From positions 10,926 through 74,925 of the forward strand of contig JAFTXO010000014.1 in NCBI GenBank assembly GCA_017461765.1: DNA of 64,000 bases, written 5' to 3'. This DNA is from Clostridia bacterium (GTDB taxonomy: Bacteria > Bacillota > Clostridia > Oscillospirales > CAG-272). Below, one piece after another: positions 140 to 44,192 of the stretch. The notes under the pieces were generated by a model. That model did not search any database. It worked only from the letters and a program-made list of their open reading frames with translations, and was not told the origin of the DNA. A program made the position numbers and the translations under genes. The first letter of the stretch is position 1. Each line of letters opens with the position of its first letter.

Positions 140-823
140 TCAACCTTCACCTGATAAATATTTATTTATTTTTTCAAGCGATGACTTTTCTATTCTCGAA
201 ACATAGGATCTTGAAATTCCAAGAATTTGTGCAACCTCTCTTTGAGTATAAGCCTGGGTATTACCAAGACCGTATCTCATAATAAGTATCTGCTTTTCTC
301 TTTCCTCTAAATTATCCCGTATAAATTTCAAAGCCTTATTTATCTGTATCTTCTTATCTATATCCTCAATTATTGTATCCTCCGTGCTTATTATATCGAT
401 ATACGTAAGCGGATTTCCATCCTTATCTATATCAATAGTATCATTAAGCGATACCTCGCATCCTATCTTTTTCTGACTTCTGAAAAACATAAGTATCTCG
501 TTTTGGATACATTTTGCCGCATAAGTTGCAAATCGTGCTCCGTTTGAAAAATTGAAGGTATCGATTGCCTTTATAAGTCCTATTGTGCCTATTGATATCA
601 GATCCTCAGTATTTTTTGTTGAAGTATAATATTTTCTTACTATATGAGCTACAAGTCTCAGATTGTGCTCGATAAGCTTTTCCCTTGCTTTTTCATCACC
701 CTGCGATGAAAGTCTAAAGCATTCCTTTTCTTCTTCCGGAGACAGAGGCGGTAAAAATTTCTGCGTAGGCTCTACTCCAAGTATCATATATGCTATATGC
801 ATAATGACAGAAAAAATCCCCAT
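140..823 (-). CDS. sigK: Sporulation sigma factor, pro-sigma-K type (sigma-70 family, SigE/SigK group)
   Basis: LIEHNLRLVAHIVRKY, DLISIGTIGLIKAI, ATYAAKCIQNEILM and GISRSYVSRIEK match the SigK/SigE signature. An N-terminal hydrophobic pro-sequence is present. GAGGTGA RBS before the ATG at 823. The gene is uninterrupted. Confidence 0.7.
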   Translation of the reverse strand: MGIFSVIMHIAYMILGVEPTQKFLPPLSPEEEKECFRLSSQGDEKAREKLIEHNLRLVAHIVRKYYTSTKNTEDLISIGTIGLIKAIDTFNFSNGARFATYAAKCIQNEILMFFRSQKKIGCEVSLNDTIDIDKDGNPLTYIDIISTEDTIIEDIDKKIQINKALKFIRDNLEEREKQILIMRYGLGNTQAYTQREVAQILGISRSYVSRIEKSSLEKINKYLSGEG

Positions 824-962
824 AAAATCACCTCACATAAACTATATTTTCAATTGTAAAAAAATTGCTTGTCAGGTTGAAATTTCAATTTTGATTTTTG
901 AATATGAAAGCAATTTAAGAGAAAAATAATAGTGAACGAAAGTTCAATTTGGAGGATTTAAA

Positions 963-1190
963 ATGATAATAGACAGAATAGCTCTTCTTCTGCTTATAGT
1001 AGGCGGAATAAACTGGGGCAGCATTGGTCTTTTCCAATTCGATATTGTTGCTTGGATATTTGGCGGACAGGATGCTATCGGAGCAAGAATAGTTTACGTA
1101 CTGGTTGCTCTTTGCGCTCTTTGGTGTATCTCGCTCTTATTCAGAGAAAGAGGAAAGATTACAAGTTCGGATACCGATCGCGTAGAATAA
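963..1190 (+). CDS. DUF378 family small membrane protein
   Basis: LLLIVGGINWGSIGLFQFDIVAWIFGG is the typical DUF378 motif. GGAGG RBS. Terminator follows at 1216-1245. Confidence 0.6.
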   Translation: MIIDRIALLLLIVGGINWGSIGLFQFDIVAWIFGGQDAIGARIVYVLVALCALWCISLLFRERGKITSSDTDRVE

Positions 1191-1215
1191 TCTAAATTTT
1201 AATATGCCAAAAAGC

Positions 1216-1245
1216 AAAAATCTCCGCTGAAAAACGGAGATTTTT
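1216..1245. terminator. Bidirectional rho-independent terminator
   Basis: AAAAATCTCCG / CGGAGATTTTT hairpin between the convergent DUF378 and tmcAL-like genes. Confidence 0.7.
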
Positions 1246-1249
1246 CATT

Positions 1250-2422
1250 TTATTTTTTAAGAAAAGGTTGTTTTTTAAATACGTCATTTTGCACCGAGGG
1301 CGATCTCATAAAGCTTATATGAAATTTATCCATTTTCAAGGACATTTCAGCCTGATTTATCGACACAGGGTCAAGTTTTTTATAATTTGCCACTTTAGTT
1401 AAAATATTTATTTTATTTGCTTTTTTTGCATTCTTTACAATTACTCTTCCGCATGAATTTGAAGAAAGTAATGTTGTATATGAAGGCATTTCCTCTATTT
1501 TTTTAACCTTAAACATCATATAAAATATGACACGTCTAAGCCTTGAATGGGTATAGGATTTAGATGTCAATTTTTCAAAAAACTCTTTGCCGCTTGAGGC
1601 TTCCTTAGCAACATTCAAAATAAAATGTGACATACCCGGCAGTGTATCGTATATAGTCTCAAAATCATCGGCAATTGCTAAAAGAAGATATTTATGGATA
1701 AAATCATCTAATGCTTCCTCATTAAGAATTTTACCTTCATTCTGCTCTCTTTTATAAACATCAAGAACATCTTCGGGAACAGATATAAATTTTCCTTTTT
1801 TATAGAAAAACTTTCTTATTGCTCCCGCAGACATGATATCCGATATCTCATAATCCTTGTATGATGATCCCTTGCGCTTGATTACTATTGGGATTATGCT
1901 AGAATCAATACTTTTAATGGCTCTTAAATATTCTACTCCAAGAATATCATTTGGCGTATTTGGTATAGATTTTCCAAGCTTTATAAGCGCTTTTTCACGA
2001 GCCCTCGGATAGCTTATTCCTTTCTCCTTAAGCGCTAAGGAAATGGCATTTGCAAAATTCTCACTATCTATCGTATCTGCAATATCCTTCAAATAATCTA
2101 TCTCCCCCGTTTCAGAGCCAAAGCAAAGATGTGTTGCTCCAAGAGATGATGCTATATATACTCCCGCCTTAGCAAACACCTCAGCGTTCGAAGACGAATA
2201 CGGATACGGTATTTCAAATACTGCATCAACGCCGCATATTACAGCCGCTTCTGCTCTTGAATACTTGTCCATTATAGCAAGCTCTGCTCTTTGCGTGCAA
2301 TTTCCTGACATGATGGCTATTATTTTAGATTTCGGGAAGCTCTCCTTAATTTTATTTATTTGAATTTTATGACCGCTGTGAAACGGATTATATTCGCATA
2401 TTATTGCGATAATTTCGCTCAT
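1250..2422 (-). CDS. tmcAL: Nucleotidyltransferase of the YlbM/TmcAL family (tRNA-Met cytidine acetate ligase-like)
   Basis: N-terminus MSEIIAIICEYNPFHSGH (HxGH nucleotidyltransferase motif) and ~390 aa length. Start chosen at 2422, which follows a GAAAGGA RBS, rather than the ORF-track start at 2452. Confidence 0.65.
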   Translation of the reverse strand: MSEIIAIICEYNPFHSGHKIQINKIKESFPKSKIIAIMSGNCTQRAELAIMDKYSRAEAAVICGVDAVFEIPYPYSSSNAEVFAKAGVYIASSLGATHLCFGSETGEIDYLKDIADTIDSENFANAISLALKEKGISYPRAREKALIKLGKSIPNTPNDILGVEYLRAIKSIDSSIIPIVIKRKGSSYKDYEISDIMSAGAIRKFFYKKGKFISVPEDVLDVYKREQNEGKILNEEALDDFIHKYLLLAIADDFETIYDTLPGMSHFILNVAKEASSGKEFFEKLTSKSYTHSRLRRVIFYMMFKVKKIEEMPSYTTLLSSNSCGRVIVKNAKKANKINILTKVANYKKLDPVSINQAEMSLKMDKFHISFMRSPSVQNDVFKKQPFLKK

Positions 2423-2467
2423 TTTTACATTCCTTTCAAAAAAATCCAACATTTTTCTTGTTTAGCC

Positions 2468-2496
2468 TTGAAATTAACCAATCTTTCATATATAAT
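2468..2496 (+). promoter_or_regulatory. Sigma-A type promoter for ackA
   Basis: TTGAAA - 17 nt - TATAAT, read directly. Confidence 0.5.
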
Positions 2497-2547
2497 ATAC
2501 TTGATATTTTAAAATTTGTCAAGAAACAATTTACGGAGGATACAAAA

Positions 2548-3813
2548 ATGAAAGTTCTTGTTGTTAATGCAGGTAGCTCATCTCTCAAATATCAGCTTAT
2601 GGATACAGCTACCGAAGAAGTTCTTGCAAAGGGCATTTGCGAGAGAATCGGAGATGTGCAAGGTAGCCTTATCGATCACAAAAAGGCTGATGGCACAAAA
2701 ATCAAAAAACAAATTCCTATGAAAGACCACGCTGTTGCTACCGAGATTGTTGTTTCGATGCTTACAGATAAAGAAAACGGATGCATCTCGAATATGAATG
2801 AGATCGAAGCTGTTGGTCACAGAGTTGTTCACGGCGGCCCTTACTTCTTTGAAAGTGTTATAGTTACCCCCGAAGTAGTTGATACTATAGATATTTGCAG
2901 TGAATTTGCACCTTTACATAATCCCGCTCACATTATGGGTATCAAGGGCTGTCAAAAAGTTATGCCCGATGTTCCCCAAGTCGTTGTATTCGATACTGCT
3001 TTCCATCAGACAATGGAGCCTAAAGCATATACATATCCTCTTCCTATAAAGATGGTTGAGGAGGATCATATCAGAAGATACGGTATGCACGGTACATCTC
3101 ACCGCTTTGTTGCTACTGAAGCGATCAAGCTTTTAGGCGACAAAAAGGATTCAAAGATAGTAACCTGCCATATTGGTAACGGTTCTTCAATATCTGCCGT
3201 AAGAGACGGTAAGGTAGTTGATACAAGCATGGGCTTCACTCCTCTTGACGGTGTTGAAATGGGTACTCGTTGCGGTTCTATAGATCCTGCTATCGTTCCT
3301 TATATCATGAAAAAATACGGTATAGGCGTTGATGAAATTTCTGATTTTCTTAATAAAAAATGCGGATTTTTAGGCGTTTCCGATTACTCTTCCGATAGCC
3401 GTGATATCGAAGCTGCTATTCTCGGTAAATTCAACGAGGAAAATCCCAAATGCCCCAAAACAGACGAAGAAAAGGCTATTGTTAAAAAGCACGCTCAGCT
3501 TGCCGCTGATATTCTTGCTTTCCAGGTTAAGAAATATATAGGTTCATATGCCGCTATAATGAACGGTCTTGATGCAATCGTATTTACAGCAGGAATGGGC
3601 GAAAACAATCCTGAGCTTCGTGAAAGAGTTTGCCGCGATATGGATTATATGGGTATCGATATCGATATGGAGCTCAATGCAAAAACATTGAGACAGCCAA
3701 ACATCGTAGAGCTCTCCACACCGAAATCCAAGGTTAAGGTTTATGTTCTTCCTACAAATGAAGAGTTTATGATTGCAAGAGATACAGAAGCTATCGTTTT
3801 GAAAAACAAATAA
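2548..3813 (+). CDS. ackA: Acetate kinase
   Basis: MKVLVVNAGSSSLKYQL N-terminus, HRVVHGG and GMHGTSH motifs. GGAGGA RBS before the ATG at 2548. The upstream part of the ORF is non-coding leader. Confidence 0.95.
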   Translation: MKVLVVNAGSSSLKYQLMDTATEEVLAKGICERIGDVQGSLIDHKKADGTKIKKQIPMKDHAVATEIVVSMLTDKENGCISNMNEIEAVGHRVVHGGPYFFESVIVTPEVVDTIDICSEFAPLHNPAHIMGIKGCQKVMPDVPQVVVFDTAFHQTMEPKAYTYPLPIKMVEEDHIRRYGMHGTSHRFVATEAIKLLGDKKDSKIVTCHIGNGSSISAVRDGKVVDTSMGFTPLDGVEMGTRCGSIDPAIVPYIMKKYGIGVDEISDFLNKKCGFLGVSDYSSDSRDIEAAILGKFNEENPKCPKTDEEKAIVKKHAQLAADILAFQVKKYIGSYAAIMNGLDAIVFTAGMGENNPELRERVCRDMDYMGIDIDMELNAKTLRQPNIVELSTPKSKVKVYVLPTNEEFMIARDTEAIVLKNK

Positions 3814-3820
3814 TTAAATG

Positions 3821-3849
3821 AAAAATCGGGCTTGAAATGCCCGATTTTT
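3821..3849. terminator. Bidirectional terminator between ackA and fucU
   Basis: AAAAATCGGGC ttgaaat GCCCGATTTTT. Confidence 0.75.
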
Positions 3850-3853
3850 GCTT

Positions 3854-4288
3854 TTATATTACGCCCTTTTGGAGCATTATATTTGCATAGATAGCTTTTT
3901 CACTGGTTGCTATTATTGCATATGCAGTCTTTGCTTCCTCATAAAAAGCAAATCTTTCGATCGTTCCTACGGTGTCTGCTCCTCTTTTGTCGTGCTTTGC
4001 AATGATCTCCTTATATGTGTCCCAAATAGGAGTTTTAGCGTTATCGCCCTTCATTACCTCCATCAAGCTTACAGGCTTTTCAACATAGGTATCAAGCGGA
4101 AAAAGCTGCAAAATTGCATCCAATATTTCCGGAACACCGTGTCCGTCGCATCTTATTACCTTTGCATTTTTTCCGATTGATTCGGAGGGAAAATTACCGT
4201 CAGCAATTACTATTCTGTCGCTATGTCCCATTTCACAAAGAACTTTAAGAAGCTCAGGTGAGATTATACTTGGAATTCCTTTTAACAT
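3854..4288 (-). CDS. fucU: RbsD/FucU family mutarotase, L-fucose mutarotase-like
   Basis: MLKGIPSIISPELLKVLCEMGHSDRIVIADGNFP is the typical FucU/RbsD N-terminus. 144 aa. Confidence 0.75.
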   Translation of the reverse strand: MLKGIPSIISPELLKVLCEMGHSDRIVIADGNFPSESIGKNAKVIRCDGHGVPEILDAILQLFPLDTYVEKPVSLMEVMKGDNAKTPIWDTYKEIIAKHDKRGADTVGTIERFAFYEEAKTAYAIIATSEKAIYANIMLQKGVI

Positions 4289-4312
4289 TTTTATTCTCCT
4301 TTATATAAAAAT

Positions 4313-5038
4313 TTATTTTGTATCTTTTGCGTATGTAACGGGAATTATCATTTTTGCTCCCGCGGTTTTTAAAAGTTGCATACAAACCTTAACAGTTGCG
4401 CCGGAAGTTATAACATCGTCTATTAAAAACACATTCTTACCTTGAATATCAACATCATTTATTCTATAAGAATTTGCTGCGTTTATTACTCTTTCGTGCT
4501 TTGTAAGTGTTTTTTGCTCCGATCTTCCGATGTTTGTAAAGCAAGAAACCACTTTCATTCCCATCTTTTTCGCGTATGCTTTTGCAAGAAGCTTTGTGTG
4601 ATCGTATCCGTATTTTATCTTTCCGCTTTTTCTTCTTGGAGGATATGTAACGATAAAATTATTACGATAATCTATATTTAGTCGTTTACAATGCATTATT
4701 GTTTTTTCTTTCATTACTTGAGCACAAAAATCAATTACCTCCAATAAATACTCACGCTTCAATTTATAAACAATATAATTTACAGGTGAATTTACATTTG
4801 GTTTATAAAACACACACGATATAATAGGCGGTTTATTCTTTCTTGAAAGAGTTGACGGAGTACAGGTGCAATAATCTATATCATATCCACATTTTTCACA
4901 AAGAATATCAAGATGGTCAAGCCAAAGCGAAGAACAATCATCGCAAATTGCCTTTTGACGTTTATAATCTATAACCTCATCGCATATCACGCACTTCCGC
5001 GTAAAGAATGACCGTTTGATATATTCAATCACATTCAT
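4313..5038 (-). CDS. comFC: ComF family protein (phosphoribosyltransferase domain, ComFC-like)
   Basis: N-terminal Cys-rich zinc-finger region plus the C-terminal PRTase motif VFLIDDVITSGATV. Overlaps the end of recD2, as is usual for this pair. Confidence 0.8.
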   Translation of the reverse strand: MNVIEYIKRSFFTRKCVICDEVIDYKRQKAICDDCSSLWLDHLDILCEKCGYDIDYCTCTPSTLSRKNKPPIISCVFYKPNVNSPVNYIVYKLKREYLLEVIDFCAQVMKEKTIMHCKRLNIDYRNNFIVTYPPRRKSGKIKYGYDHTKLLAKAYAKKMGMKVVSCFTNIGRSEQKTLTKHERVINAANSYRINDVDIQGKNVFLIDDVITSGATVKVCMQLLKTAGAKMIIPVTYAKDTK

Positions 5039-7253
5039 CTTCGCCGTTCCTCAAAAAATAACAAAGTCCCGTGTTTTTGCATATTTCATTATCATTAAGT
5101 ATCATATTTTCGAATGTTTTTTTATCACCTATAACAATAACAACGTCCTCTGCTCTTGTGATGGCGGTATAGATAAGGTTTCTTGTAAGCAAAAATGATG
5201 ATGTTTTAGATAAAACGACTATAACTATCGAATATTCACTACCTTGACTTTTATGTACAGTCACGGCATATGCGGGATCTATTTCAACAAGAGCTGAAAA
5301 ATCGTATTCTGTAATTTTTTCATCGAAATCAATGGTGATCTTTTTTTCCTCTTTATTTATTGCTTTTATAATGCCGATTTCGCCGTTATAAATACCGTAA
5401 TCCTCTTCGTTTCCGCGATGCCATATAGCACAATAATCGTTTCTTGTCTGCATAACCTTATCTCCGACCCTGAACACTCTTTCAGACGATGTCGTATATT
5501 CGGTCTTCGACGGTGATGGAGGATTTAATACATCCTTTAAAATAAGATTTAAATTTTTCGTTCCTGTAACGCCCTTTTTTGTAGGAGTGATCACCTGTAT
5601 TGTCCTATCTTCACCGTATTTTGCAGGTAGCCTTCTTTTATAAAGATCTGCAACGTAACTCGGTATTTGCGACTCATTTTCCTTTGAAATAAAGAAAAAA
5701 TCATCGTATTTTTTTGTAAGATCGGTAATGATACCGTTTTTTATTTGGTGTGCTACGCTTATAATTCCGCTATCTTTATCCTGACGGAATATCTCTTTTA
5801 GCTCTATTGTAGAAAAGCGCTCGGATCTTATTATATCGTTAAGCACATCGCCCTCTCCGATAGATGGCAGCTGATTTACATCACCGATAAGTATCAGCCT
5901 TGATCCCGGCTTTATGGCTTTTAAAAGCGCTTTCATTAGAAAAATATCTATCATTGACGTTTCATCTACGATTATTACGTCCTGTAATAAATGATTTTTT
6001 TCATTTCTGCCAAAGCGCAAAGGAGGAAGTCTTTCATCGTACTCTCGCTCCATTTCAAGCAAACGGTGAATCGTTTTAGCCTCGCAAGATGTAGTTTCGC
6101 TCATTCTTTTGGCAGCTCTTCCTGTTGGCGCTGCCAAGGCACATTTTAGGCCGAGCTTATTAAAAATCTCCAAAAGAGCTTTAACAACGGTTGTTTTTCC
6201 CGTTCCCGGTCCGCCCGTTATAACGGTAACCCCATTAGAAATTGCTTTCTCTATAGATTTTTTTTGCATAGATGCATATTTTATTGAATTTTTATATTCT
6301 ATCTGCTCTATGAAGGCGTGAATATTTGAAATATCAATAGTAAAAATAGTTTTGTTCAAAAAAAGAAGCTTTTTTGCAATATATTCCTCTGTTATATATG
6401 TATCCTTTAAATACACGTGGCTTTCCGAAGCAAAATTAACTATGCGTATCTTATCCTCTTTTACAAGCTCGTCTATCATAACAAATATTTTCTCTTTATC
6501 AACATCAAGTAACTTTTGAGATGATGTAGCAAGCGTTTCTTTAAACACATATGTATGTCCGTCTCTTTCGGAATAGGTCTTTAAAACGAAAATTATACCG
6601 CTTTTTATTCTCAAATTGCTTTCGTGATAAATATTACCGAGCTTCTTCGCCATTTGATCTGCGGTATTGAACGGAAATCCGAACTCACATAATGCGTAAG
6701 GGTCTTCTGTTATTCTTTTAACAGCTTCTCTGCCCCATTTTTGATATATTTGTAATGCCATAGCGGGAGAAAGATGGCCGTCACAAGCAATCATAAGCTC
6801 ACGCACGCCTGTTTTATCACGAAAATCCTTGCTTATCTCACGAGCTTTATTCAATGATATTCCGCGGATTTGCATAAGCCAATCGCCGTGATTTGCTATT
6901 ACCTCAAACGTATCCTCGCCGTATTTATCGACGATTTTTTGAGCGATTTTCGGGCCTATACCCTTTATTATGCCTGAAGAAAGATATTTGAAAATTCCGT
7001 TCTTATCGTTTGGGAGAACCTTTTCGTACTTTTCTACCTTGAACTGCCTACCGTAAAGCTGATGGTGAGTCCAGCTTCCAAAAACATCTATTCTTTCGCC
7101 TACAGAAATATATGGCATACTACCTACGATCATAGTTGTCTCGCCGTTATCATTCTTTATTTCACATATGCTATATCCCGTTTCGTCGTTCGAATAAACG
7201 ACATTCTCGACTGTTCCGCATATGTGCAACAGATTGGAATAAGCGCCGTCCAT
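5025..7253 (-). CDS. recD2: ATP-dependent RecD2-like DNA helicase (RecD/TraA family)
   Basis: Walker A ITGGPGTGKTT, DETSM, GDVNQLPS, and the C-terminal SH3/UvrD_C region TVHKSQGSE. Start chosen at 7253 (AAGGGGGAG RBS). The ORF-track start at 7304 is an alternative. Confidence 0.9.
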   Translation of the reverse strand: MDGAYSNLLHICGTVENVVYSNDETGYSICEIKNDNGETTMIVGSMPYISVGERIDVFGSWTHHQLYGRQFKVEKYEKVLPNDKNGIFKYLSSGIIKGIGPKIAQKIVDKYGEDTFEVIANHGDWLMQIRGISLNKAREISKDFRDKTGVRELMIACDGHLSPAMALQIYQKWGREAVKRITEDPYALCEFGFPFNTADQMAKKLGNIYHESNLRIKSGIIFVLKTYSERDGHTYVFKETLATSSQKLLDVDKEKIFVMIDELVKEDKIRIVNFASESHVYLKDTYITEEYIAKKLLFLNKTIFTIDISNIHAFIEQIEYKNSIKYASMQKKSIEKAISNGVTVITGGPGTGKTTVVKALLEIFNKLGLKCALAAPTGRAAKRMSETTSCEAKTIHRLLEMEREYDERLPPLRFGRNEKNHLLQDVIIVDETSMIDIFLMKALLKAIKPGSRLILIGDVNQLPSIGEGDVLNDIIRSERFSTIELKEIFRQDKDSGIISVAHQIKNGIITDLTKKYDDFFFISKENESQIPSYVADLYKRRLPAKYGEDRTIQVITPTKKGVTGTKNLNLILKDVLNPPSPSKTEYTTSSERVFRVGDKVMQTRNDYCAIWHRGNEEDYGIYNGEIGIIKAINKEEKKITIDFDEKITEYDFSALVEIDPAYAVTVHKSQGSEYSIVIVVLSKTSSFLLTRNLIYTAITRAEDVVIVIGDKKTFENMILNDNEICKNTGLCYFLRNGEDECD

Positions 7254-8550: not shown

Positions 8551-8675
8551 CAAAAGCCCGCGTAATTCCGCGGGCTGAACTTTTTAAGGTCTCATCTCTC
8601 GGAATTGGCACCTTGTCTTTCGATAGGTTGCCGTAGCTTCATAGGGCCTGTCCCTCCGCTACTCTTGATAAGAAT
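8551..8675 (-). ncRNA. SAM-I (S-box) riboswitch with expression-platform terminator, in the 5' leader of metK
   Basis: The minus strand reads TTATCAAGAGTAGCGGAGGGACAGGCCCTATGAAGCTACGGCAACC...GGTGCCAATTCCGAGAGA. It is followed by the AGCCCGCG gaatta CGCGGGCT TTTG hairpin at 8555-8576. Confidence 0.9.
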
Positions 8676-18887: not shown

Positions 18888-19643
18888 TTATGCCAAATAA
18901 TACGACACTCTGTCAAGAATTCTGTTCAAATTATCTACCATAGACACCATTCCGCCTATTCGTACATTTCCGAGCCCTACTGCGGATACAGCGTTTACTT
19001 TTCCGTCAAAAAGCGCACGCGCTAAATTTATATCGGCAAATTCCATATAAGATGTATAATCATCAATATGCAAATGTACTGTTTTGAGCTTGTGATCATC
19101 ACATACGATATATGCACTTTCCTCGCCCTTTATAGTGATCCTTGCAATGCCGTCAACTATATTTGATGCGCTAAACATTCCGACCTTATCCTGATTTCCT
19201 ATCTGCGACATAGCCTCTGTTATCACGTAGAACATTACCAAGGTGCTTGTTTTAAAGAATTTTTCATCCTTCAGATCATCTTCGCTTGCTCTTAAATATT
19301 TTGATAAAAGATCCGTCAACGGAATAAATTTTTTAAGTAAAAAACCGATTTTGGTAAAGCCCTTTGAGGGAATTGGTGTCACTGTGCCGTCTATCATTCC
19401 GTTAAATTTTTCAGGCTTTGAGAAAGAAAGCTTTATATTGCATTTCTCTATTCCTTCAACCATTTTGCATTCGCCTTTATCAAATATAAGAGTAGCTCTC
19501 GGTCCGTTTTTGACCGAAAATCCTATAGATATTTCATCGTTTTCTATCAATCTTCTTGCCTCATCGCATTCTTGGCAAAGTTTAGGAATTGCGCCTAAAA
19601 TGGCAAAAAGATTTATGTATGAGAGTGTTCTGTTATCCTTCAT
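18888..19643 (-). CDS. Hypothetical protein with a C-terminal SCP2-like (sterol-carrier/lipid-binding) region
   Basis: C-terminus LARALFDGKVNAVSAVGLGNVRIGGMVSMVDNLNRIL resembles the SCP2 helix-strand signature. Co-oriented with the aminotransferase start and 11 nt upstream of it. The functional call is weak. Confidence 0.4.
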   Translation of the reverse strand: MKDNRTLSYINLFAILGAIPKLCQECDEARRLIENDEISIGFSVKNGPRATLIFDKGECKMVEGIEKCNIKLSFSKPEKFNGMIDGTVTPIPSKGFTKIGFLLKKFIPLTDLLSKYLRASEDDLKDEKFFKTSTLVMFYVITEAMSQIGNQDKVGMFSASNIVDGIARITIKGEESAYIVCDDHKLKTVHLHIDDYTSYMEFADINLARALFDGKVNAVSAVGLGNVRIGGMVSMVDNLNRILDRVSYYLA

Positions 19644-20366: not shown

Positions 20367-20899
20367 TGAATATAGAGGCTGAGGTTATATATAATAAGCA
20401 GGCGTTTGGCGATCTTATGAAATTCAACGCTATTCCATCACTCGCTAAGGCTATATTTTATGTTGTTAGCTTTGTCTTTGCTTTAGGGCTTATGATAACG
20501 AGTATCGGACAGCAGTTTTTTCCGATCTCGCTTGTTTTATTCATATTGGTGTGTACCGTTTCTCTTCTCGCTCTGTATTCTTATTTTATAAGACCGCAGC
20601 TTGCGCTTAGAAAATTCAATGATGATATGATCGTTACAAATCATTTCGTTTTTGAGGATGACGGAGTGAAAATGTCTTCCAAGACAAAGTCAAGGCAAGG
20701 CTCATCAAAGCTCGCTTATTCAAGCTTTGTCAAGATATGTGAGACGAAAAAATATTTTTATCTGTTTGTAAACAAAACAGGTGTTCTTATAGTTACAAAA
20801 TCGGAGATCTTAAATTCGGATGAAAAGGCTTTGAGAAGCTTTTTAAATTCGAAATTTCCCGACAGAACTAAAAACAAATTAAAGAAAAAAGGCACTTGA
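20363..20899 (+). CDS. YcxB-like membrane protein (two TM helices plus a bacterial PH-like domain)
   Basis: Two TM helices followed by [10 protein letters not shown]...[19 protein letters not shown], which is the YcxB architecture. ATGA overlap with ppa. Confidence 0.55.
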
Positions 20900-20910
20900 T
20901 GCCTTTTTAT

Positions 20911-20995
20911 GTAGGCGTGGCGGAACTGGTATACGCGTCGGTCTCAGAAGCCGATGGAGCAATCCTTGTGGGTTCAAGTCCCATCGCCTGCACCA
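20911..20995 (+). tRNA. tRNA-Leu (anticodon CAG), class II with long variable arm, CCA encoded
   Basis: Folded by hand. Acceptor GTAGGCG/CGCCTGC, D stem GCG/CGC, anticodon stem TCGGT/GCCGA with loop CT-CAG-AA, variable arm GGA-gcaa-TCC, T arm GTGGG-TTCAAGT-CCCAT, 3' ACCA. Confidence 0.9.
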
Positions 20996-21002
20996 ACAAA
21001 AA

Positions 21003-21036
21003 CAGAACTTTTGTCTACCAAAAGTTCTGTTTTTGT
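21003..21036 (+). terminator. tRNA terminator hairpin. This is copy 1 of the conserved CAACAAA..GAAC..TTTGTCTAC hairpin.
   Basis: CAGAACTTTT gtctacc AAAAGTTCTG followed by TTTTTG. Confidence 0.7.
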
Positions 21037-21047
21037 TTATCCAAGCC

Positions 21048-21170
21048 GCAGGATTGGCATATCATCGCCGCACAACGTGCGGTGTATATCATCAGCCCTT
21101 CGGGCTGTATCTCATCACGCGCCAGCGTGTATTCTCCTGCAGCTTCATGATATGCAATGCTTCGCATTGA
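21048..21170 (+). repeat. Hairpin array 1: four short GC-rich hairpins separated by TAT(A/C)TCATC spacers, the first three enclosed by a GCAGGA/TCCTGC closing stem
   Basis: Hairpins are CCGCAC-aac-GTGCGG (21068-21082), CAGCCC-ttc-GGGCTG (21093-21107), CACGC-gcca-GCGTG (21116-21129) and CAATGC-ttc-GCATTG (21155-21169). Spacers sit at 21058, 21085 and 21108. Confidence 0.6.
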
Positions 21171-21195
21171 TTTATTTGCCAAAGTGTGATATAAT
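21167..21195 (+). promoter_or_regulatory. Sigma-A promoter of cassette 1 (extended -10)
   Basis: TTGATT - 17 nt - TATAAT, with TG one nt upstream of the -10. AAAGGAG RBS at 21203-21209. Confidence 0.6.
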
Positions 21196-21216
21196 ACTGT
21201 TGAAAGGAGTGATTAT

Positions 21217-21564
21217 ATGGCTAAAAACTATTTATTGATATATTCGGAGCAGCTCGCAATCGAGATAGAGCTACTTTGTCAAAAGATAAAAGCACCTTCT
21301 AATACTTTTTTCCAAATCCGTAAGAGTTCAAGTAGCGTTTATGCGAATATTCGTGAAGCCAATTACGGGCAAAGTAAGGCTGATATGCTTTCGAAATTCG
21401 AAATAGCTATCAAAGAGTGCAGCGAAACAGAAGGCTGGTTACAGTTGTTATATAACACAAAAGGTATTGATGAAGAAACATATAAAAACTATAGAAATCT
21501 ATGTGGTCGAATAAGACGAATGTTTATTGCAAGTTGCAGAACTTTGAAGGAGAATGCGAAATGA
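21217..21564 (+). CDS. Four-helix-bundle protein (23S rRNA intervening-sequence protein / Avd-like family)
   Basis: 115 aa. IRKSSSSVYANIREANYGQSKADMLSKFEIAIKECSETEGWLQLL matches the family signature (..s..sI.aNIAEg.gr.s..df..fl.iA.gS..El...l.l). Confidence 0.7.
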   Translation: MAKNYLLIYSEQLAIEIELLCQKIKAPSNTFFQIRKSSSSVYANIREANYGQSKADMLSKFEIAIKECSETEGWLQLLYNTKGIDEETYKNYRNLCGRIRRMFIASCRTLKENAK

Positions 21565-21989
21565 TAGTTTATCATTACACAGACAAATCAAATCTTGACA
21601 ACATAATGAAGAACGGTCTTAAAGCAACCTCAAGATATGAGTCTTTTACTGAACTCAGAAAAAATGTTGTTTTCTGTTGGTTATCTCCATCTGACAATAA
21701 AATATTTTCCGATGATACGATATGCCTTGAAGTAACTGTGAATGAAAATGATTGCATAGTTGCAAGTATGGATTATATAAGCTTTGCTATGATGTATAAA
21801 TACGGGGGAGCAAAGTATGGCGGGATGAACATTCCTATAAACGAGACTGCCTCTGAATTGTTTGTAAAACTATATGATACAACTGCTATCCCTCTGTCTC
21901 AATATAGAAACGGAAATCTATTATCTCCGGAAGTGCTGGTAAAAGGAAGTATTTCTCCGGAAAACATACGAATTTACAATGACAAATAG
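21561..21989 (+). CDS. 142-aa uncharacterised protein with DarT/Tpt1-like ADP-ribosyltransferase-type motifs (hypothesis only)
   Basis: ATGA start/stop overlap with the four-helix-bundle gene. N-terminus VYHYTDKSNLDNIMKNGL (H-x-T), central VVFCWLSP, C-terminus PEVLVKGSISPENIRIY. No search or fold prediction was done. Confidence 0.3.
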   Translation: MIVYHYTDKSNLDNIMKNGLKATSRYESFTELRKNVVFCWLSPSDNKIFSDDTICLEVTVNENDCIVASMDYISFAMMYKYGGAKYGGMNIPINETASELFVKLYDTTAIPLSQYRNGNLLSPEVLVKGSISPENIRIYNDK

Positions 21990-21991
21990 TG

Positions 21992-22101
21992 TATTGACCT
22001 TTTCTTCGCTTTTACCTCGTTTTTTTACCTTTTATCACGTTTAAGGCAACAAAAAAAGAACATTTGTCTACCAAGACAAATGTTCTTTTTTTGAACGATG
22101 T
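21992..22101 (+). repeat. 3' module copy A (pyrimidine-rich box, then CAACAAA..GAAC hairpin/terminator, then TTGAACGATGT)
   Basis: Starts 3 nt after the stop codon of 21561-21989. 39 of the first 45 nt are identical to 23274-23318. The hairpin AGAACATTTGTCT acca AGACAAATGTTCT (22057-22086) is flanked by A7 and T7. Confidence 0.8.
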
Positions 22102-22236
22102 GTTCCGCCACAGCGGAACGTGATGCGTACTTCGTGCGTGAGGATGCGGAACACATCACATCACTTTGCGCCCAAGGCGCAATACATCATTATGGCGAAG
22201 CCATAACATCACTGCGCGGGCGCCGCAACATCACTA
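22097..22236 (+). repeat. Hairpin array 2: GC-rich hairpins separated by ACATCA(C/T) heptamers, plus a 12-nt long-range inverted repeat
   Basis: Heptamers at 22153, 22184, 22206 and 22228. Hairpins at 22166-22182, 22191-22205 and 22213-22227. GATGTGTTCCGC (22097-22108) is the exact reverse complement of GCGGAACACATC (22146-22157). Confidence 0.6.
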
Positions 22237-22265
22237 TTTACAAACTACTAAAATTATGCTATAAT
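22237..22265 (+). promoter_or_regulatory. Sigma-A promoter of cassette 2 (extended -10)
   Basis: TTTACA - 17 nt - TATAAT, with TGc immediately upstream of the -10. Confidence 0.6.
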
Positions 22266-22289
22266 AAAATCCGGAAAGGCGGTGAACTC

Positions 22290-23273
22290 GTGGAAGAAAA
22301 CAACTTAAAGCATATTGAAGGAAAAAAGATACGCCGACAGTATTTTAATATTCCTCTGATTATTCTATATTCATTGATGCTTGCAATCCCCTATGCTATT
22401 TTTACGATTTCGTTATGCATAGGAAAGTCTGATTCTTACGAGTGGTCATCTACGCTTTGGACATCAATATGGATTTGCTTTTTCTTTTCATTACCCCTAC
22501 TTGTTCTCAGCACATTAAACAAACATTGCTTTGGAAGAATTCTTTGTGTTCTTAATAAAGAAGGGATACATTTTTCGAATAAAGGAAAGCTTCGTTGGGA
22601 AGTAATTGAAAAAATTGAATATGTCATAGATTCAAAACCAAGATACAAAAGCGATACAAAAAAAGCATTCAGAGCAATTATCTATACACAAGGCGGTAAG
22701 CATATTGTTCTCGCCAATGTGCCTCTTTATATTGTATCACGCATAAAGAAATATCAAAAAGGGCTTGAGATCAAAATTTTAGGTATAACATCATTGTTGC
22801 CCGTTACGTTGGTTATGGTGGCAATACTACTTCTGTGTCCTTTTTATGTGGTGCTGCTTCGAAATGCACCCGGCGCTTCAGTCGCTCATTTTATTGTTTT
22901 GGCGATTATTTGGCTTATCTTTGGAATTATTCGTACGCCTATATTTGATATGTATGACATACGGTATCGGTTTTGGAGCAAGGTTTTACCAAAGAAATGG
23001 CTATCATACATGATACTCGGGTGTTATTATTCATCATTTTTTGTAGTTCTCCTTATTTTGTTTTATCTTCCCAATTGGGTTGTGGTTTCTATTCTTGGTG
23101 TATATCTGGGCATAGTACAACCGCCTATGCCTTCCAAATATGGTAGCAGTCGTTTCAACTACATACTGTCATATGATAAGTTGTGGGAGATCTATATTAA
23201 TAAAGCAGATTTTTGGGAAGATCATATAGCGAAGAACAAGAAAAAAAGGGCTGAGAAAAAGAGTAAGAAATAA
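22290..23273 (+). CDS. Polytopic membrane protein with an internal bacterial PH-like segment and a Lys-rich tail; function unknown
   Basis: GTG start at 22290, 7 nt after a GGCGGTG/AAAGG RBS. The ORF-track N-terminal extension (22098-22289) covers the hairpin array and the promoter and is not coding. Two TM helices, then VLNKEGIHFSNKGKLRWEVIEKIEYVI, then about four more TM helices. Confidence 0.6.
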   Translation: MEENNLKHIEGKKIRRQYFNIPLIILYSLMLAIPYAIFTISLCIGKSDSYEWSSTLWTSIWICFFFSLPLLVLSTLNKHCFGRILCVLNKEGIHFSNKGKLRWEVIEKIEYVIDSKPRYKSDTKKAFRAIIYTQGGKHIVLANVPLYIVSRIKKYQKGLEIKILGITSLLPVTLVMVAILLLCPFYVVLLRNAPGASVAHFIVLAIIWLIFGIIRTPIFDMYDIRYRFWSKVLPKKWLSYMILGCYYSSFFVVLLILFYLPNWVVVSILGVYLGIVQPPMPSKYGSSRFNYILSYDKLWEIYINKADFWEDHIAKNKKKRAEKKSKK

Positions 23274-23381
23274 TATTGACCATTTCTTTACTTTTACCTC
23301 GAATTTTTACCTTTTAACCGCAATATTACAACAAAGAACGCACTTTTGTCTACTGACAAAGGTGCGTTTTTTGAATGATGT
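23274..23381 (+). repeat. 3' module copy B
   Basis: Starts directly after the TAA of 22290-23273. Same pyrimidine-rich box. The hairpin ACGCACTTTTGTC tact GACAAAGGTGCGT (23338-23367) is followed by T6 and then TTGAATGATGT. Confidence 0.8.
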
Positions 23382-23556
23382 TTAGCTCTCTCGCCCTAAA
23401 AATCTTTTAGGATTTTCAAGAACCCTGAGGTACGGCTGATGTTCGCTTTGCGAAGAAGATACGGTTATGAAAGACAACAAGTTTGTCGAGCTCTCGATGA
23501 ACTTTTCTGTTGATATCATAATCCCGTTAAATTCTTGAAAACAAATCACTAAACGA

Positions 23557-25353
23557 TTATTGCTTTAAATAATTTATTTTTCTCATTCTGTTTATAAGCG
23601 CAAGCAGCTCTTGCTTGCGAGGAAGATCAAGAAAACGCTCGCACGTGGTAAAATATGATGAATACAGAAAATCAATGCCTTCCTTCTCTATCCTTGCATA
23701 AAGCTCATTCACTTCTCTTTTTATATCGATTTTTCTATCACTGTTTGATATTTCTATATATCTGAGCATAAAGCCAAGCGTATCAAGTTGTCGCGGTGAG
23801 ATGATGTTATAAAGTCCTCTTACATCTATTTTTTCGTCTCCGATAATTATAAATCCCGTATCGGAAACGCTAAGGCGTTCGCTTCCGCTTCCTTCGGGAT
23901 ACGAAGTAAATCCTTGCGAATAAAGCGTTCTTTCCTGTTTCCAGCTTGCAGGCTCAGGTGGTTTTATGGAAACTCCGTATACTGAACAGATCGATTTTGA
24001 TCTTTCAGTAACATCATGGATAGTATAATCCTGCATCATATATATCTTATCGGCAACAGAAAGATATTCTCCGCTTCCGCCAATAACGAGTATTGTCGAA
24101 ACTCCAAGTGTATCATACAGCTCCTTTACGCGATCGGTAAAGGGTGTTATCGGTTCTTTTTCAATAAGCTCCTTCATCATTCCATCGCGTATCATAAAGT
24201 TTGTTGCACTACGGTCCTCGTCGATAAGCAGAAGCTTAGCCTCGCTATCGATAGCTTCCATTATGTTCGCGGCTTGTGATGTCGAGCCCGAGGCGTGCTC
24301 GGTCGAAAAATCACTCGTATCGCCGTTTGAAAGCCATTTTATAAAAGGTGAAATATTTACGTGCGTTACGCTTCTTCCATCCTCTGCGCAGATCGTAACG
24401 GCGCTTCTATCGGTAATACAAAGCTCGCGTCCATCTCCGGGCGAATGATCATAAATACCGACAGATATAGCATCGAGCAAGGTTGATTTTCCCGAATATC
24501 CTCCGCCTGTGATAACTGTAACTCCTTTTTTGATACCCATTCCGCGCAAGCCAAAAATTTCTATTTCATCATTTGGTGTTGATATAAACGGAATTGCATC
24601 AGGCATCGGAAGATCGGTGTTTTTAGCTCTCGGCAAAATGCTTCCGTTTGCAATAAATGCGCAATAGTTGCTTGTTTTAAGCCACTCCCTTATATTTTTT
24701 TGCTTTTCCGCTATCTCCAAGCTTTTTAAAAGCTTAACAAGATCAAATTCCGCTATAAATCTATCAGTAGCGTTCGGCAGATCACGGCAAAGCATCTGAA
24801 CAGCCTTGCGAAGCTTCTTTTTCGGTAGCTGAACCTGTAATTTTATACAAATACACATTCTCGGAGAAAGTGATATATCATCATTGAGCAAATATGCGCT
24901 TGAGCCTGCTCCGTTTTCGTAATCCTTTTGTGTACATATTTCAAAATATGACGAATTTCTTTTGATAACCTCGCCTCCGATTTTTGAAATATAATATTTT
25001 CCGTTTTCATTATCAGGACGGCTTCTGTTATAAAGCTCTGCGTTAAGCTCTTGTACATATTTTTCGAATTCTCTCAGGCAGAAATCCGCGGCAATATCGT
25101 TATATTCCGATATACCAAGAAGCTCACACGGTATCATTACTGTAACGGTTGGCTTATCCTGTGCAAGCTTATGAGTTACCGTGATCATAAAGCCGATATC
25201 TCCGTTATAATACGTCGGATCATAACGCGTTTCGGGAAGCTCCCAAGGGCGTTTTGGATCGGATACAATCAAGATACCGTTATACATTTCCGAATAAGTA
25301 GCTGTGTTTGGTTCCATTGATAATAATTTATTTTTTAATCTTTTCATTGGCAT
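23557..25353 (-). CDS. ABC-ATPase domain protein (predicted ATPase of the ABC class, COG3044-like)
   Basis: 598 aa. VTVITGGGYSGKSTLLDAISVGIYDH P-loop and LLLIDEDRSATNFM Walker B-like motif, with no transmembrane partner. Confidence 0.65.
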   Translation of the reverse strand: MPMKRLKNKLLSMEPNTATYSEMYNGILIVSDPKRPWELPETRYDPTYYNGDIGFMITVTHKLAQDKPTVTVMIPCELLGISEYNDIAADFCLREFEKYVQELNAELYNRSRPDNENGKYYISKIGGEVIKRNSSYFEICTQKDYENGAGSSAYLLNDDISLSPRMCICIKLQVQLPKKKLRKAVQMLCRDLPNATDRFIAEFDLVKLLKSLEIAEKQKNIREWLKTSNYCAFIANGSILPRAKNTDLPMPDAIPFISTPNDEIEIFGLRGMGIKKGVTVITGGGYSGKSTLLDAISVGIYDHSPGDGRELCITDRSAVTICAEDGRSVTHVNISPFIKWLSNGDTSDFSTEHASGSTSQAANIMEAIDSEAKLLLIDEDRSATNFMIRDGMMKELIEKEPITPFTDRVKELYDTLGVSTILVIGGSGEYLSVADKIYMMQDYTIHDVTERSKSICSVYGVSIKPPEPASWKQERTLYSQGFTSYPEGSGSERLSVSDTGFIIIGDEKIDVRGLYNIISPRQLDTLGFMLRYIEISNSDRKIDIKREVNELYARIEKEGIDFLYSSYFTTCERFLDLPRKQELLALINRMRKINYLKQ

Positions 25354-44065: not shown

Positions 44066-44180
44066 CTAAAAAAATAAATGGACAGAACTACCCTACTGCG
44101 GTAGAACTGCCCAGACGGTCGACATCGAAGGAAATTTGCTCCCTTGCGGTGTTCCCGCCATCCGTCAGTTGCAAAAACCT
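44066..44180 (-). ncRNA. ZTP (pfl motif) riboswitch with terminator, leader of the pur operon
   Basis: The minus strand reads CAACTGACGGATGGCGGGAACACCGCAAGGGAGC ... GTCGACCGTCTGGGCAG. GACGG and CCGTC can form the pseudoknot, and CCGTCTGGGCA resembles the conserved 3' CCGCCUGGGCA. The overlapping terminator is GGGCAGTTCTACC gcagta GGTAGTTCTGTCC plus a T-run (44066-44113). Confidence 0.7.
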
Positions 44181-44192
44181 TTACCGATATCA

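Follow-up and report, generated by a model that had tools for sequence, protein, structure and literature searches.

Compact gene cassettes behind a tRNA-Leu gene of a Clostridia bacterium belong to a widespread family with signs of integron-like exchange

In the genome assembly of a Clostridia bacterium (Oscillospirales, CAG-272; GenBank GCA_017461765.1), a tRNA-Leu(CAG) gene is directly followed by two compact gene cassettes, which we analysed within a 64,000-nucleotide stretch of contig JAFTXO010000014.1 (positions 10,926 to 74,925, forward or + strand), referred to here as the window. An earlier interpretation made from the letters of the window, the sequence-only reading, had described a layout that occurs twice after the tRNA: a hairpin, a GC-rich hairpin array, an extended –10 promoter, one or two genes, and a 3′ module. 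The coordinates bear this out, including both near-consensus promoters, and place a third terminator hairpin (HP) at the close of the series (Table 1). The parts were thus correctly recognized, but the unit had been drawn as running from a terminator through genes and module to an HP, whereas the natural unit that emerges from the comparisons below is HP, array, promoter, genes and module. Also overlooked were that the hairpin arrays and promoters themselves belong to the conserved repeat, and that the first gene, a member of family PF05635, is a recurrent leader.

Table 1. Features of the tRNA-Leu(CAG) cassette locus, in positions of the 64-kb window
Feature	Position	Strand	Remarks
tRNA-Leu(CAG)	20911-20995	+	ARAGORN; Rfam RF00005, 51.6 bits
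HP0, terminator hairpin CAACAAAAACAGAACTTTTGTCTACCAAAAGTTCTGTTTTTG	20994-21038	+	First element of cassette 1; doubles as tRNA terminator
Array 1 (type I)	21039-21166	+	GC hairpins; GC 0.54
Promoter P1	21167-21195	+	TTGATT-17-TGTGATATAAT; TG-extended TATAAT
Leader gene, 115 aa, PF05635 / TIGR02436 four-helix bundle	21217-21564	+	
Cargo 1, 142 aa, ADP-ribosyltransferase-like fold	21561-21989	+	ATG overlaps leader stop codon (ATGA)
Module 1, direct repeats TTGACCTTTTCTTCGCTTTTAC and TTTACCTTTTATCACGTTTAAG, end ..GGCA	21992-22046	+	
HP1, terminator hairpin	22047-22093	+	20-bp perfect stem; opens cassette 2, terminates cassette 1
Array 2 (type II)	22094-22236	+	GC 0.56; GATG-type linkers left, CATCA(C/T) right
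Promoter P2	22237-22265	+	TTTACA-17-TGCTATAAT; TG-extended TATAAT; 11/12 matches
Cargo 2, 327-aa multi-pass membrane protein	22290-23273	+	Open reading frame; GTG start inferred
Module 2, two-repeat, end ..TTACA	23274-23328	+	Abuts cargo 2 stop codon
HP2 and type II array stub (TTTTTTGAATGATGTTT)	23329-23384	+	Distal edge of cassette stack

The HP consensus CAACAAA takes its first two bases from the final CA of the tRNA CCA. The motif CAACAAA-N9-TTTGTCTAC occurs in three in-register copies, one at the start of each HP (20994, 22047 and 23329), each forming a 19–20 bp hairpin followed by a T run; TTTGTCTAC has no further copy in the 64 kb, three copies being reached in 3/100 shuffles. The paired 3′ modules are likewise real: a 43-nt pattern is found exactly twice (21992 and 23274; 0/100 shuffles), the two copies agree at 39 of the first 45 positions, and both finish with TTTTTTGAA(C/T)GATGT. 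Module 1 starts 2 nt after the TAG at 21987–21989 and module 2 starts 0 nt after the TAA at 23271–23273. Cassette genes have a GC content of 0.35, against 0.54 and 0.56 in arrays 1 and 2. Likeness to the family ends after the HP2 stub, where the family consensus goes on ..GATGTTTGCCTTCGGCAAATGATG and the window continues with unique sequence. The flanking genes are of housekeeping type: upstream lie genes for a pyrophosphatase and a YcxB-like protein, and downstream one for an ABC-class ATPase in convergent orientation. The tRNA was the sole Rfam 15 match over 20900–23600 even at E up to 5, the rest being noise.

The HP is shared far beyond this locus. Scanning gut and rumen metagenome contigs with an HP pattern yielded at least 120 loci, and all comparative evidence (loci with handles L001 onwards, from this and other searches) that follows comes from metagenome assemblies. 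CAACAAA and TTTGTCTAC were part of the search pattern, and their invariance is therefore partly by construction. Among the loci listed, 123 distinct contexts of the HP were found, 59 directly behind a tRNA gene and 55 not; about 30 of these 55 were counted as two-repeat modules with direct repeats of ~22 nt (e.g. GGTGTACTTTTAGTCGTTCTTAC), and partial tRNA 3′ ends precede the HP in ~10 contexts. Whichever of these lies 5′ of the HP (tRNA, module or partial tRNA), it always ends in CA. ARAGORN called a tRNA in 58 contexts, representing 26 anticodon types, and the A of CCA coincides with HP position 2 in 57/58; the architecture of HP, array and module thus returns behind 26 kinds of tRNA. HPs typically lie 49–66 nt beyond the stop codon. 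Module 1 homologues sit 5′ of an HP in four other loci (L038, L086, L093 and L130), so that the module is not unique to the tRNA-Leu locus; its uniqueness, together with an unvarying two-cassette locus in relatives, is what the sequence-only reading had named as speaking against it. HP0 with its array is 72–95% identical to copies in L038, L124 and L152, and relatives of array 2 are present in L044 and L099.

These hairpins appear to be maintained as hairpins. The 78 HP variants are near-perfect 18–22 bp hairpins followed by a T run, with ~5/78 being chance matches. The earlier observation that the stems differ yet stay paired holds across the family: among 20 distinct HPs, 99.2% of cells are paired, 43 cells have changed on both sides, and the covariation score is 0.348 versus 0.097 in shuffles (0/500 shuffles reach it), while slid controls pair at 47–59%. 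G.U pairs occur in the HPs on the + strand. Predicted folding energies are about –23 to –28 kcal/mol (RNAfold: –24.9 for HP1, –27.8 for HP2 and –23.0 for a variant identical to HP0). All three HPs of the window have the features of an intrinsic terminator (stem-loop plus T run, on the sense strand and 3′ of a gene), and a terminator scan calls HP2. An A-tract, a stem and a T-tract are generic terminator features, and the sequence-only reading had allowed that the hairpins might prove to be ordinary, unrelated terminators. Such chance likeness of terminators and 3′ untranslated regions is excluded by the module shuffles, by a family of more than 100 homologous HPs and by their covarying stems; the arrays, too, are homologous across loci.

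The module-core pattern TTTTACCTCGNNTTTTTACC gave 33 matches in species-representative genomes, about the chance expectation, none of which had the TATTGACC head or an HP; they fall by coincidence in coding regions or belong to local tandem TTTACC(TCG) repeats of unrelated phyla. Intergenic tandem TTTACC(TCG) repeats in L006, L012, L021, L024 and L025, some of them near tRNA genes or start codons, were judged to be chance or low-complexity matches. A blastn search of plasmid and phage collections with HP and array 1 gave no match, and a scan of viral contigs returned two matches only. No earlier description of a tRNA-tail cassette system was found in the full-text literature, within a searchable library that is incomplete. 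The family is large and, apparently, undescribed, and resides in uncultured gut and rumen Clostridia.

Between HP and promoter lies a spacer of 120–250 nt across the family, built as a dyad-symmetric structured array without an Rfam match. At least five flavours exist, in which a linker word is repeated 2–5 times in the left half and its reverse complement 2–5 times in the right half (ATATCA/TGATAT, ATGATG/CATCAT, GTGATG/CATCAC, GTGAAG/CTTCAC and TGAAAT/ATTTCA), with self-complementary GC hairpins between the linkers. RNAalifold pairs left with right linkers, and the local hairpins of type I arrays carry compensatory changes at 15 pairs. In array 1 of the window, the linkers are of the ATATCATC type in the left half and GATATG / TGATAT in the right half, and a candidate long-range helix joins AAGCCGCAGG (21043–21052) with CCTGCAGCTT (21136–21145) with one mismatch; type I arrays keep the element TGTG(A/G)TATAAT at their 3′ end. 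The 5′ segment of an array has two alternative pairings, one local and one with a distal complement, as in array 2, where a 12-bp long-range inverted repeat (GATGTGTTCCGC, 22096–22107; GCGGAACACATC, 22146–22157) competes with a local hairpin. On the + strand of the arrays, G.U pairs far exceed A.C pairs, which points to folding of that strand as RNA or single-stranded DNA, the form in which the array may act. Judged from HP covariation, compensatory changes, complementary linkers and G.U bias, selection for structure is probable in both elements, with strong covariation in the HP.

The same repeats are present at high copy number in DNA from gut samples, and break assemblies. Across assembled contigs of four gut-metagenome runs, HP0 and array 1 have a depth of 450–1549 compared to 5–25 in the flanks (28-fold in the run where the genome is deepest), and array 1 has 20–290 times the depth of the flanks; module 2 and HP2 reach 632 compared to 23.5 (run X1). 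Copies of array 2 with more or fewer hairpin units occur among the metagenome contigs. Alternative contigs part from the window right after the –10 or the ATG (one just after P2, at 22270), and others join the HP to other tRNA ends. In this species as in its sister lineage, contigs break at these repeats, stopping at the tRNA or shortly beyond it.

Comparison of related loci defines the boundaries of the unit. L138 and L045 share upstream and downstream sequence, and L138 has an extra 4.85 kb placed exactly 5′ of the resident HP, opening with its own, different HP (HP′) and closing with a two-repeat module (TTTTAGA). The two junctions have only GA/CA in common (the slash marking the junction), and HP′ and the resident HP differ, both being self-complementary. 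This filled and empty pair therefore defines the unit as extending from HP to module, and each module/HP junction within an array has the look of a reconstituted attachment site, the module being a putative recombinase-binding site.

The sister lineage (L168–L175, recognized by a pyrophosphatase with at least 90% identity) provides a further comparison. Its tRNA-Leu(CAG) is identical, likeness ends after ..GCACCAA, and an unrelated terminator comes next, so that neither HP nor cassettes lie directly there. Each of these contigs ends soon after that terminator; GTGGTGC..GTGGTGC repeats occur in the last sequence, 150–300 nt past the tRNA-Leu, where another variable or repeated element may start.

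Frames and cargo are combined in mosaic fashion. Compared to the window, L124 and L152 retain ~65–95% nucleotide identity per 40-nt bin (mostly 78–90%) from HP0 to the end of the leader, and identity falls to background exactly over the cargo. Conversely, L044 has a different frame (leader 45% identical in amino acids, type II array, another module) around the same cargo 1 (84% amino-acid identity). Swaps thus break at the start codon and the stop codon, with one cargo in several frames and one frame with several cargos; in addition, one module family joins several different HP types, and frames are common to organisms with very different flanks. Cargo 1 occurs behind four tRNAs: tRNA-Leu(CAG), tRNA-Ser(GCT), in second position, tRNA-Arg(CCG) and tRNA-Pro(GGG). 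A homologue 59% identical to cargo 2 is found in L056 and L155, where it immediately follows tRNA-Gln(CTG) within a type I frame. L038, found via cargo 1 homologues, carries a string of co-oriented small genes after tRNA-Ser(GCT), the first two closed by homologous modules and preceded by homologous HP–array–promoter junctions; later junctions have diverged. In L039 (1–2490), which holds the L038 cassette array, a prophage-like block of small genes in the tRNA-Ser leaves a 24-nt partial tRNA 3′ end directly before the HP; ATACCCCTT repeats lie ~130 nt from the end of the prophage-like element. L112 (1–9182, reverse strand) is a five-HP stack with a serine-recombinase C-terminal fragment at its head and, as cargo, three beta-lactamase-family/PBP-like proteins, an M3 peptidase-like protein and an S-adenosylmethionine (SAM) methyltransferase. 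Finally, L159 has a 1353-bp insertion (4701–6054) relative to L133 and L049, with an 8-bp overlap, which is probably an insertion sequence with target duplication.

We read these loci as non-autonomous, self-expressed cassettes that may be inserted or exchanged at CCA/HP and module/HP junctions by a recombinase acting in trans, building integron-like stacks behind tRNAs; we give this a probability of about 0.55, with mobility deduced from sequence comparison. In each unit, the HP, predicted to be a strong intrinsic terminator that would stop incoming transcription, begins on the CA of the tRNA CCA or on that closing the preceding unit. It is followed by the structured spacer, the unit's own promoter, often the leader, a swappable cargo open reading frame (ORF), and the ~55-nt two-repeat module, which abuts the stop codon and has CA at its end. 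In the proposed mechanism, units would be gained, lost or swapped at CCA/HP or module/HP, most likely through site-specific recombination, the enzyme being encoded elsewhere and module plus HP serving as an attP-like site, and the outcome would be an integron-like array in which each cassette is transcriptionally insulated and self-expressed. The proposal of the sequence-only reading, reiterated insertion at one tRNA-proximal site, is accordingly the interpretation best supported by comparison, but neither insertion nor excision was seen at the tRNA-Leu locus itself.

Several observations weigh against recombination of this kind. L001 and L176 are identical to the window, as are all strains holding the locus, each in the two-cassette form; variation among relatives at tRNA-Leu(CAG), for which the sequence-only reading had asked, is seen in the sister lineage. 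No excision joints, and no circular or excised forms, were found in the assembled contigs of the four gut-metagenome runs, and no RNA run contains the locus. No dyad symmetry was found around the module/HP junction, which speaks against a core site of the usual tyrosine- or serine-recombinase kind. In these genomes, a tRNA terminator starts immediately after CCA also where it is unrelated to the HP, and part of the exact CCA junction may therefore reflect ordinary terminator design. Non-HP terminators also precede platforms (L181 and L056); the HP is not indispensable, and the family is therefore broader than the HP pattern. Part of the differences seen between contigs may stem from chimeric assembly over array repeats that exceed the assembler k-mer, and the Pro/Arg contrast of cargo 1 could be one such chimera. 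Breakpoints are found on both sides of the HP, after the promoter or –10, and at start and stop codons; homologous recombination between conserved flanks must therefore contribute, and could explain much of the mosaic. Lastly, no recombinase could be tied to the small cassettes.

Breakpoints at every edge of a conserved block are also what would be expected of a dispersed repeat, akin to repetitive extragenic palindromes (REP) and bacterial interspersed mosaic elements (BIME), that combines terminator, insulator and promoter (HP, array and promoter, together with the module). Such a repeat would have come to lie beside many tRNA genes and at other intergenic sites, and would be homogenised and reshuffled by homologous recombination and gene conversion, the genes between its copies being ordinary accessory genes and the cassettes by-products. 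Very high copy number, with assemblies breaking at the repeat, the missing dyad-symmetric core and the failure to find a recombinase in the window would all be accounted for, and the arrays do resemble clusters of palindromic units: short, GC-rich, intergenic, variable in unit number and present in high copy. Unlike REP/BIME clusters, however, the arrays have linkers that are complementary between halves, a fixed place between terminator and promoter, and strand-specific G.U pairs; they have no GTAG-type head, and no REP-associated tyrosine transposase (RAYT) was seen in the window. Homology-driven reshuffling also sits poorly with the L138/L045 ends, given the bare GA/CA shared there and the dissimilarity of the two HPs, with the pairing of one module family with several HP types at a fixed stop-to-HP distance, and with the sharing of frames between organisms whose flanks are very different. 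We regard a dispersed repeat, with homologous recombination as sole cause, as unlikely but as the main rival explanation.

Another possibility concerns the tRNA anchor. Genomic islands that target tRNA 3′ ends, their tandem accretion, cis-mobilizable elements (CIMEs) and tycheposons are anchored in this manner, and their non-autonomous forms need a recombinase in trans. The cassettes might accordingly be remnants of successive tRNA-integrating islands, prophages or integrative mobilizable elements that lost their integrases and most of their other genes, with HP and module as attL/attR-like scars of decayed, CIME-type attachment sites. Like such islands, they show tRNA 3′ anchoring, tandem stacking and, at ~10 HPs, partial tRNA 3′ ends; in addition, a cassette in L044 is flanked by a 55-nt repeat, a prophage-like element lies in the tRNA-Ser of L039, and larger serine-recombinase elements end at the same /CA-HP junction (L074, L138 and L166). 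Conserved ends and the one precise filled/empty pair (L138/L045) would fit a CIME-like element; a cognate recombinase was not identified, and the junction has no dyad symmetry. In contrast to islands, the units measure only ~1–1.3 kb and are all laid out alike, in an order that looks engineered (terminator, spacer, promoter, ORF, module); a search of 20800–23700 found no duplicate of the tRNA-Leu 3′ end, only CA and hairpin being shared. Direct repeats of a tRNA 3′ segment, the hallmark of islands, were met only in L044, where an integrase inside is absent too. Random decay would not give such uniformly compact units, each with promoter, tight ORF and module, nor does it fit the recurrence of the same leader and frame with many cargos; the abundant serine-recombinase element, moreover, is also found by unrelated hairpins and has a different end sequence. 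Decayed attachment sites thus appear improbable as an overall explanation.

The L044 repeat itself (4374–4425 and 5486–5545) carries a tRNA-Arg-like 3′ end (..GAGTCCTGTAGGGTGGGCCA) and flanks a leader plus ADP-ribosyltransferase (ART) cassette; its upstream copy lies inside a ~100-nt GC-rich structured stretch for which ARAGORN makes no call, and there is no integrase.

The search for a recombinase covered both the window and the family. The statement of the sequence-only reading that no integrase, transposase or phage gene is seen in the window is upheld as regards recombinases: precomputed Pfam annotation of all genes ~8 kb either side of the locus contains no recombinase, and tblastn of the 64 kb with one tyrosine integrase and four serine recombinases found no homologue (best E 0.95). 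IS200/IS605, IS110/bridge-RNA, Tn7-like, HUH/rolling-circle (iterons plus nick hairpin) and diversity-generating retroelement (DGR) systems are speculative readings weighed on anatomical grounds; none of their defining proteins appears in the Pfam annotations of the fetched loci, no targeted search having been made, and the cassette unit has no inverted ends.

Large serine recombinase genes do occur near HPs in L063, L074, L112, L138 (truncated) and L166, representing about four independent elements. As driver of the cassettes, a large serine recombinase was not accepted, the abundant one also inserting by unrelated hairpins and the junction having no dyad, and is kept as a candidate only. That abundant element (L074, 4453–8386; L167, 1558–5518) combines three adjacent large-serine-recombinase genes with genes for KilA-N and DUF1016. 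Its abundance in human gut data is extreme (the protein clusters have thousands of members), and its end, ..GTTATGA/CA, adjoins terminator-like hairpins in no fewer than two different hosts. The tyrosine-integrase element of L084 was likewise rejected as driver, being a separate insertion between a cargo gene and its module: it is a 4.8-kb element (359–5174, compared to L049 at ~2216) with tyrosine integrase and helix-turn-helix genes between an EamA-like cargo and a two-repeat module, flanked by a 12–15-bp direct repeat, (A)TAAAT(T/C)GGAATTTG.

Known cassette systems offer the closest parallels to the reading we favour. As in integrons and in clusters of attC sites lacking integron-integrases (CALINs), small, co-oriented and tightly packed cassettes are split by a conserved hairpin-forming repeat (the window, L038 and L112), the cargo is accessory, one cassette occurs in different arrays, and the stack grows from one proximal site. 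Integrons, however, have an IntI-type tyrosine recombinase and attI at the array head, neither of which was found here (Pfam over the 8-kb flanks; tblastn with one tyrosine query). Integron attC sites have R″/R′ boxes (RYYYAAC / GTTRRRY) and extrahelical bases, whereas the HP is a perfect terminator hairpin, and GTTRRRY was not found at the 3′ edge of type II HPs among the 78 variants examined. Integron cassettes are mostly promoterless and depend on a common promoter, Pc, whereas each unit here brings its own TG-extended –10, the 3′ end of a tRNA forms the proximal site, and the units contain an additional structured spacer and, in many cases, a leader gene. We therefore reject an integron proper on the attC, IntI and Pc evidence; to our knowledge, integrons are essentially unreported in Firmicutes.

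Recombinase-associated acquired interbacterial defence (rAID-1) arrays of Bacteroidales have a conserved XerD-family recombinase at their head and intergenic repeats described as 'reminiscent of integrons' (10.1101/471110). They resemble the present cassettes in occurring in gut bacteria as long arrays of small, co-oriented genes with skewed GC and diverse small cargo. They differ in their head recombinase, of which none was found here, in their other repeats, and in the absence of tRNA anchoring; an immunity function of the present cargo would be conjectural. The statement of the sequence-only reading that no element class explains the locus is somewhat too strong: the system lacks the defining features of integrons, rAID-1 and classical tRNA islands, yet it works most like them, behaving as non-autonomous, att-flanked cassettes of integron/CALIN, rAID-1 or CIME-like type.

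Cassette 1 encodes the leader and cargo 1 in tight coupling. The leader matches Pfam PF05635 (5e-18, 65.7 bits versus a cut-off of 33.8), NCBIfam TIGR02436 (8.7e-21, 74.2 bits versus 24) and PDB entry 2rld (1.4e-15). Its tblastn homologues occur in 24 fetched loci, 17 of which were picked by HP pattern alone, and it is the first gene in 16/81 HP-downstream contexts, mostly in loci chosen by HP pattern alone. Where a next ORF is present (12 contexts), the leader overlaps it or comes close to touching it, and the cargo is diverse (GNATs, a methyltransferase and unknowns); the last codons of the leader carry the ribosome-binding site of the next gene, and its stop codon overlaps the start (ATGA). 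PF05635 is the family of Avd, the accessory protein of DGRs (PMC10053308). No description of a role outside DGR Avd was found in the literature searched.

This family membership brings a route through RNA into view, whereby transcripts would be reverse-transcribed, joined to the tRNA CCA by priming or template switching, and brought in by homologous recombination, with the Avd-like protein as a reverse-transcriptase cofactor. Neurospora mitochondrial retroplasmids are a precedent for joining reverse transcripts to tRNA CCA ends. A junction that is nucleotide-exact at the mature tRNA end in 26 tRNA types, cargo boundaries that are ORF- or transcript-like, and selected + strand structure are all compatible with this route. 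Opposed to it, the promoter and spacer contained in each unit would fall outside a single mRNA, non-HP terminators also begin right after CCA, and no reverse transcriptase appears in the Pfam annotations, which cover selected ORFs and precomputed tables, no dedicated search having been run. RNA-mediated capture is very improbable.

Cargo 1 has no Pfam, NCBIfam or PADLOC match. Its AlphaFold2 model (pLDDT 90.4) finds DarT1, KptA/Tpt1 and pertussis toxin S1 as the best Foldseek matches (probability 0.9–1.0, TM 0.36–0.45, E ~3e-3); the full-length structural matches share 11–15% identity, a likeness at the fold level only. Its homologues number 82, many on ~1-kb contigs, and H5, Y26, Y79 and E124 are invariant in 34 of them. 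At the level of fold, cargo 1 may thus be assigned as an ART-fold protein with putative H-Y-E type residues. In these matches and invariant H, Y and E residues, cassette 1 resembles DarT/Tpt1 ARTs, and in the translational coupling to a small upstream gene it resembles type II toxin–antitoxin operons, so that leader and ART-fold cargo may form a functional pair. In contrast to DarT systems, the partner is a PF05635 four-helix bundle rather than a macrodomain, and, unlike the antitoxin of a toxin–antitoxin module, the leader also precedes unrelated cargo enzymes. Cargo 2 has no family match in Pfam, NCBIfam or PADLOC, and PADLOC defence-system models gave no match. Across the family, cargo types comprise GNATs, beta-lactamase-family proteins, methyltransferases, a nucleotidyltransferase, membrane proteins and many unknowns.

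Going further than the cassette reading, the family may, tentatively and at less than even odds, be viewed as an unrecognised Firmicutes platform for gene capture and expression, with a function analogous to that of integrons, primary docking at tRNA 3′ ends, units delimited by HP and two-repeat module that bring their own promoter and a new dyad-symmetric element of structured RNA or single-stranded DNA, the PF05635 leader of many units as a universal translational 'adapter', start-to-stop cargo swaps, and a recombinase class or RNA route new to cassette systems. If the units are mobile, gut Clostridia would have a cassette system with integron-like logic and a route for sharing accessory genes, the cargo on offer including acetyltransferases, beta-lactamase-family proteins, nucleotidyltransferases, methyltransferases, membrane proteins and a DarT/Tpt1-like enzyme. 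For metagenomics, the repeats matter in that they systematically break assemblies at tRNA loci. The gene contexts of the leader give an initial clue to the function of PF05635, the large 'four-helix bundle / 23S rRNA intervening sequence protein' family, the dyad-symmetric hairpin array is a new structured nucleic-acid element absent from Rfam, and the order of terminator, insulator, promoter, adapter and ORF amounts to a natural 'expression cassette' design.

Elsewhere in the window, a 251-aa ORF (18888–19643, – strand) with no Pfam match on record lies between an aminotransferase and the pyrophosphatase. Rfam identifies a SAM riboswitch (76 bits; 8589–8674, – strand) and a ZMP/ZTP riboswitch (53 bits; 44102–44182, – strand), both unrelated to the cassettes.

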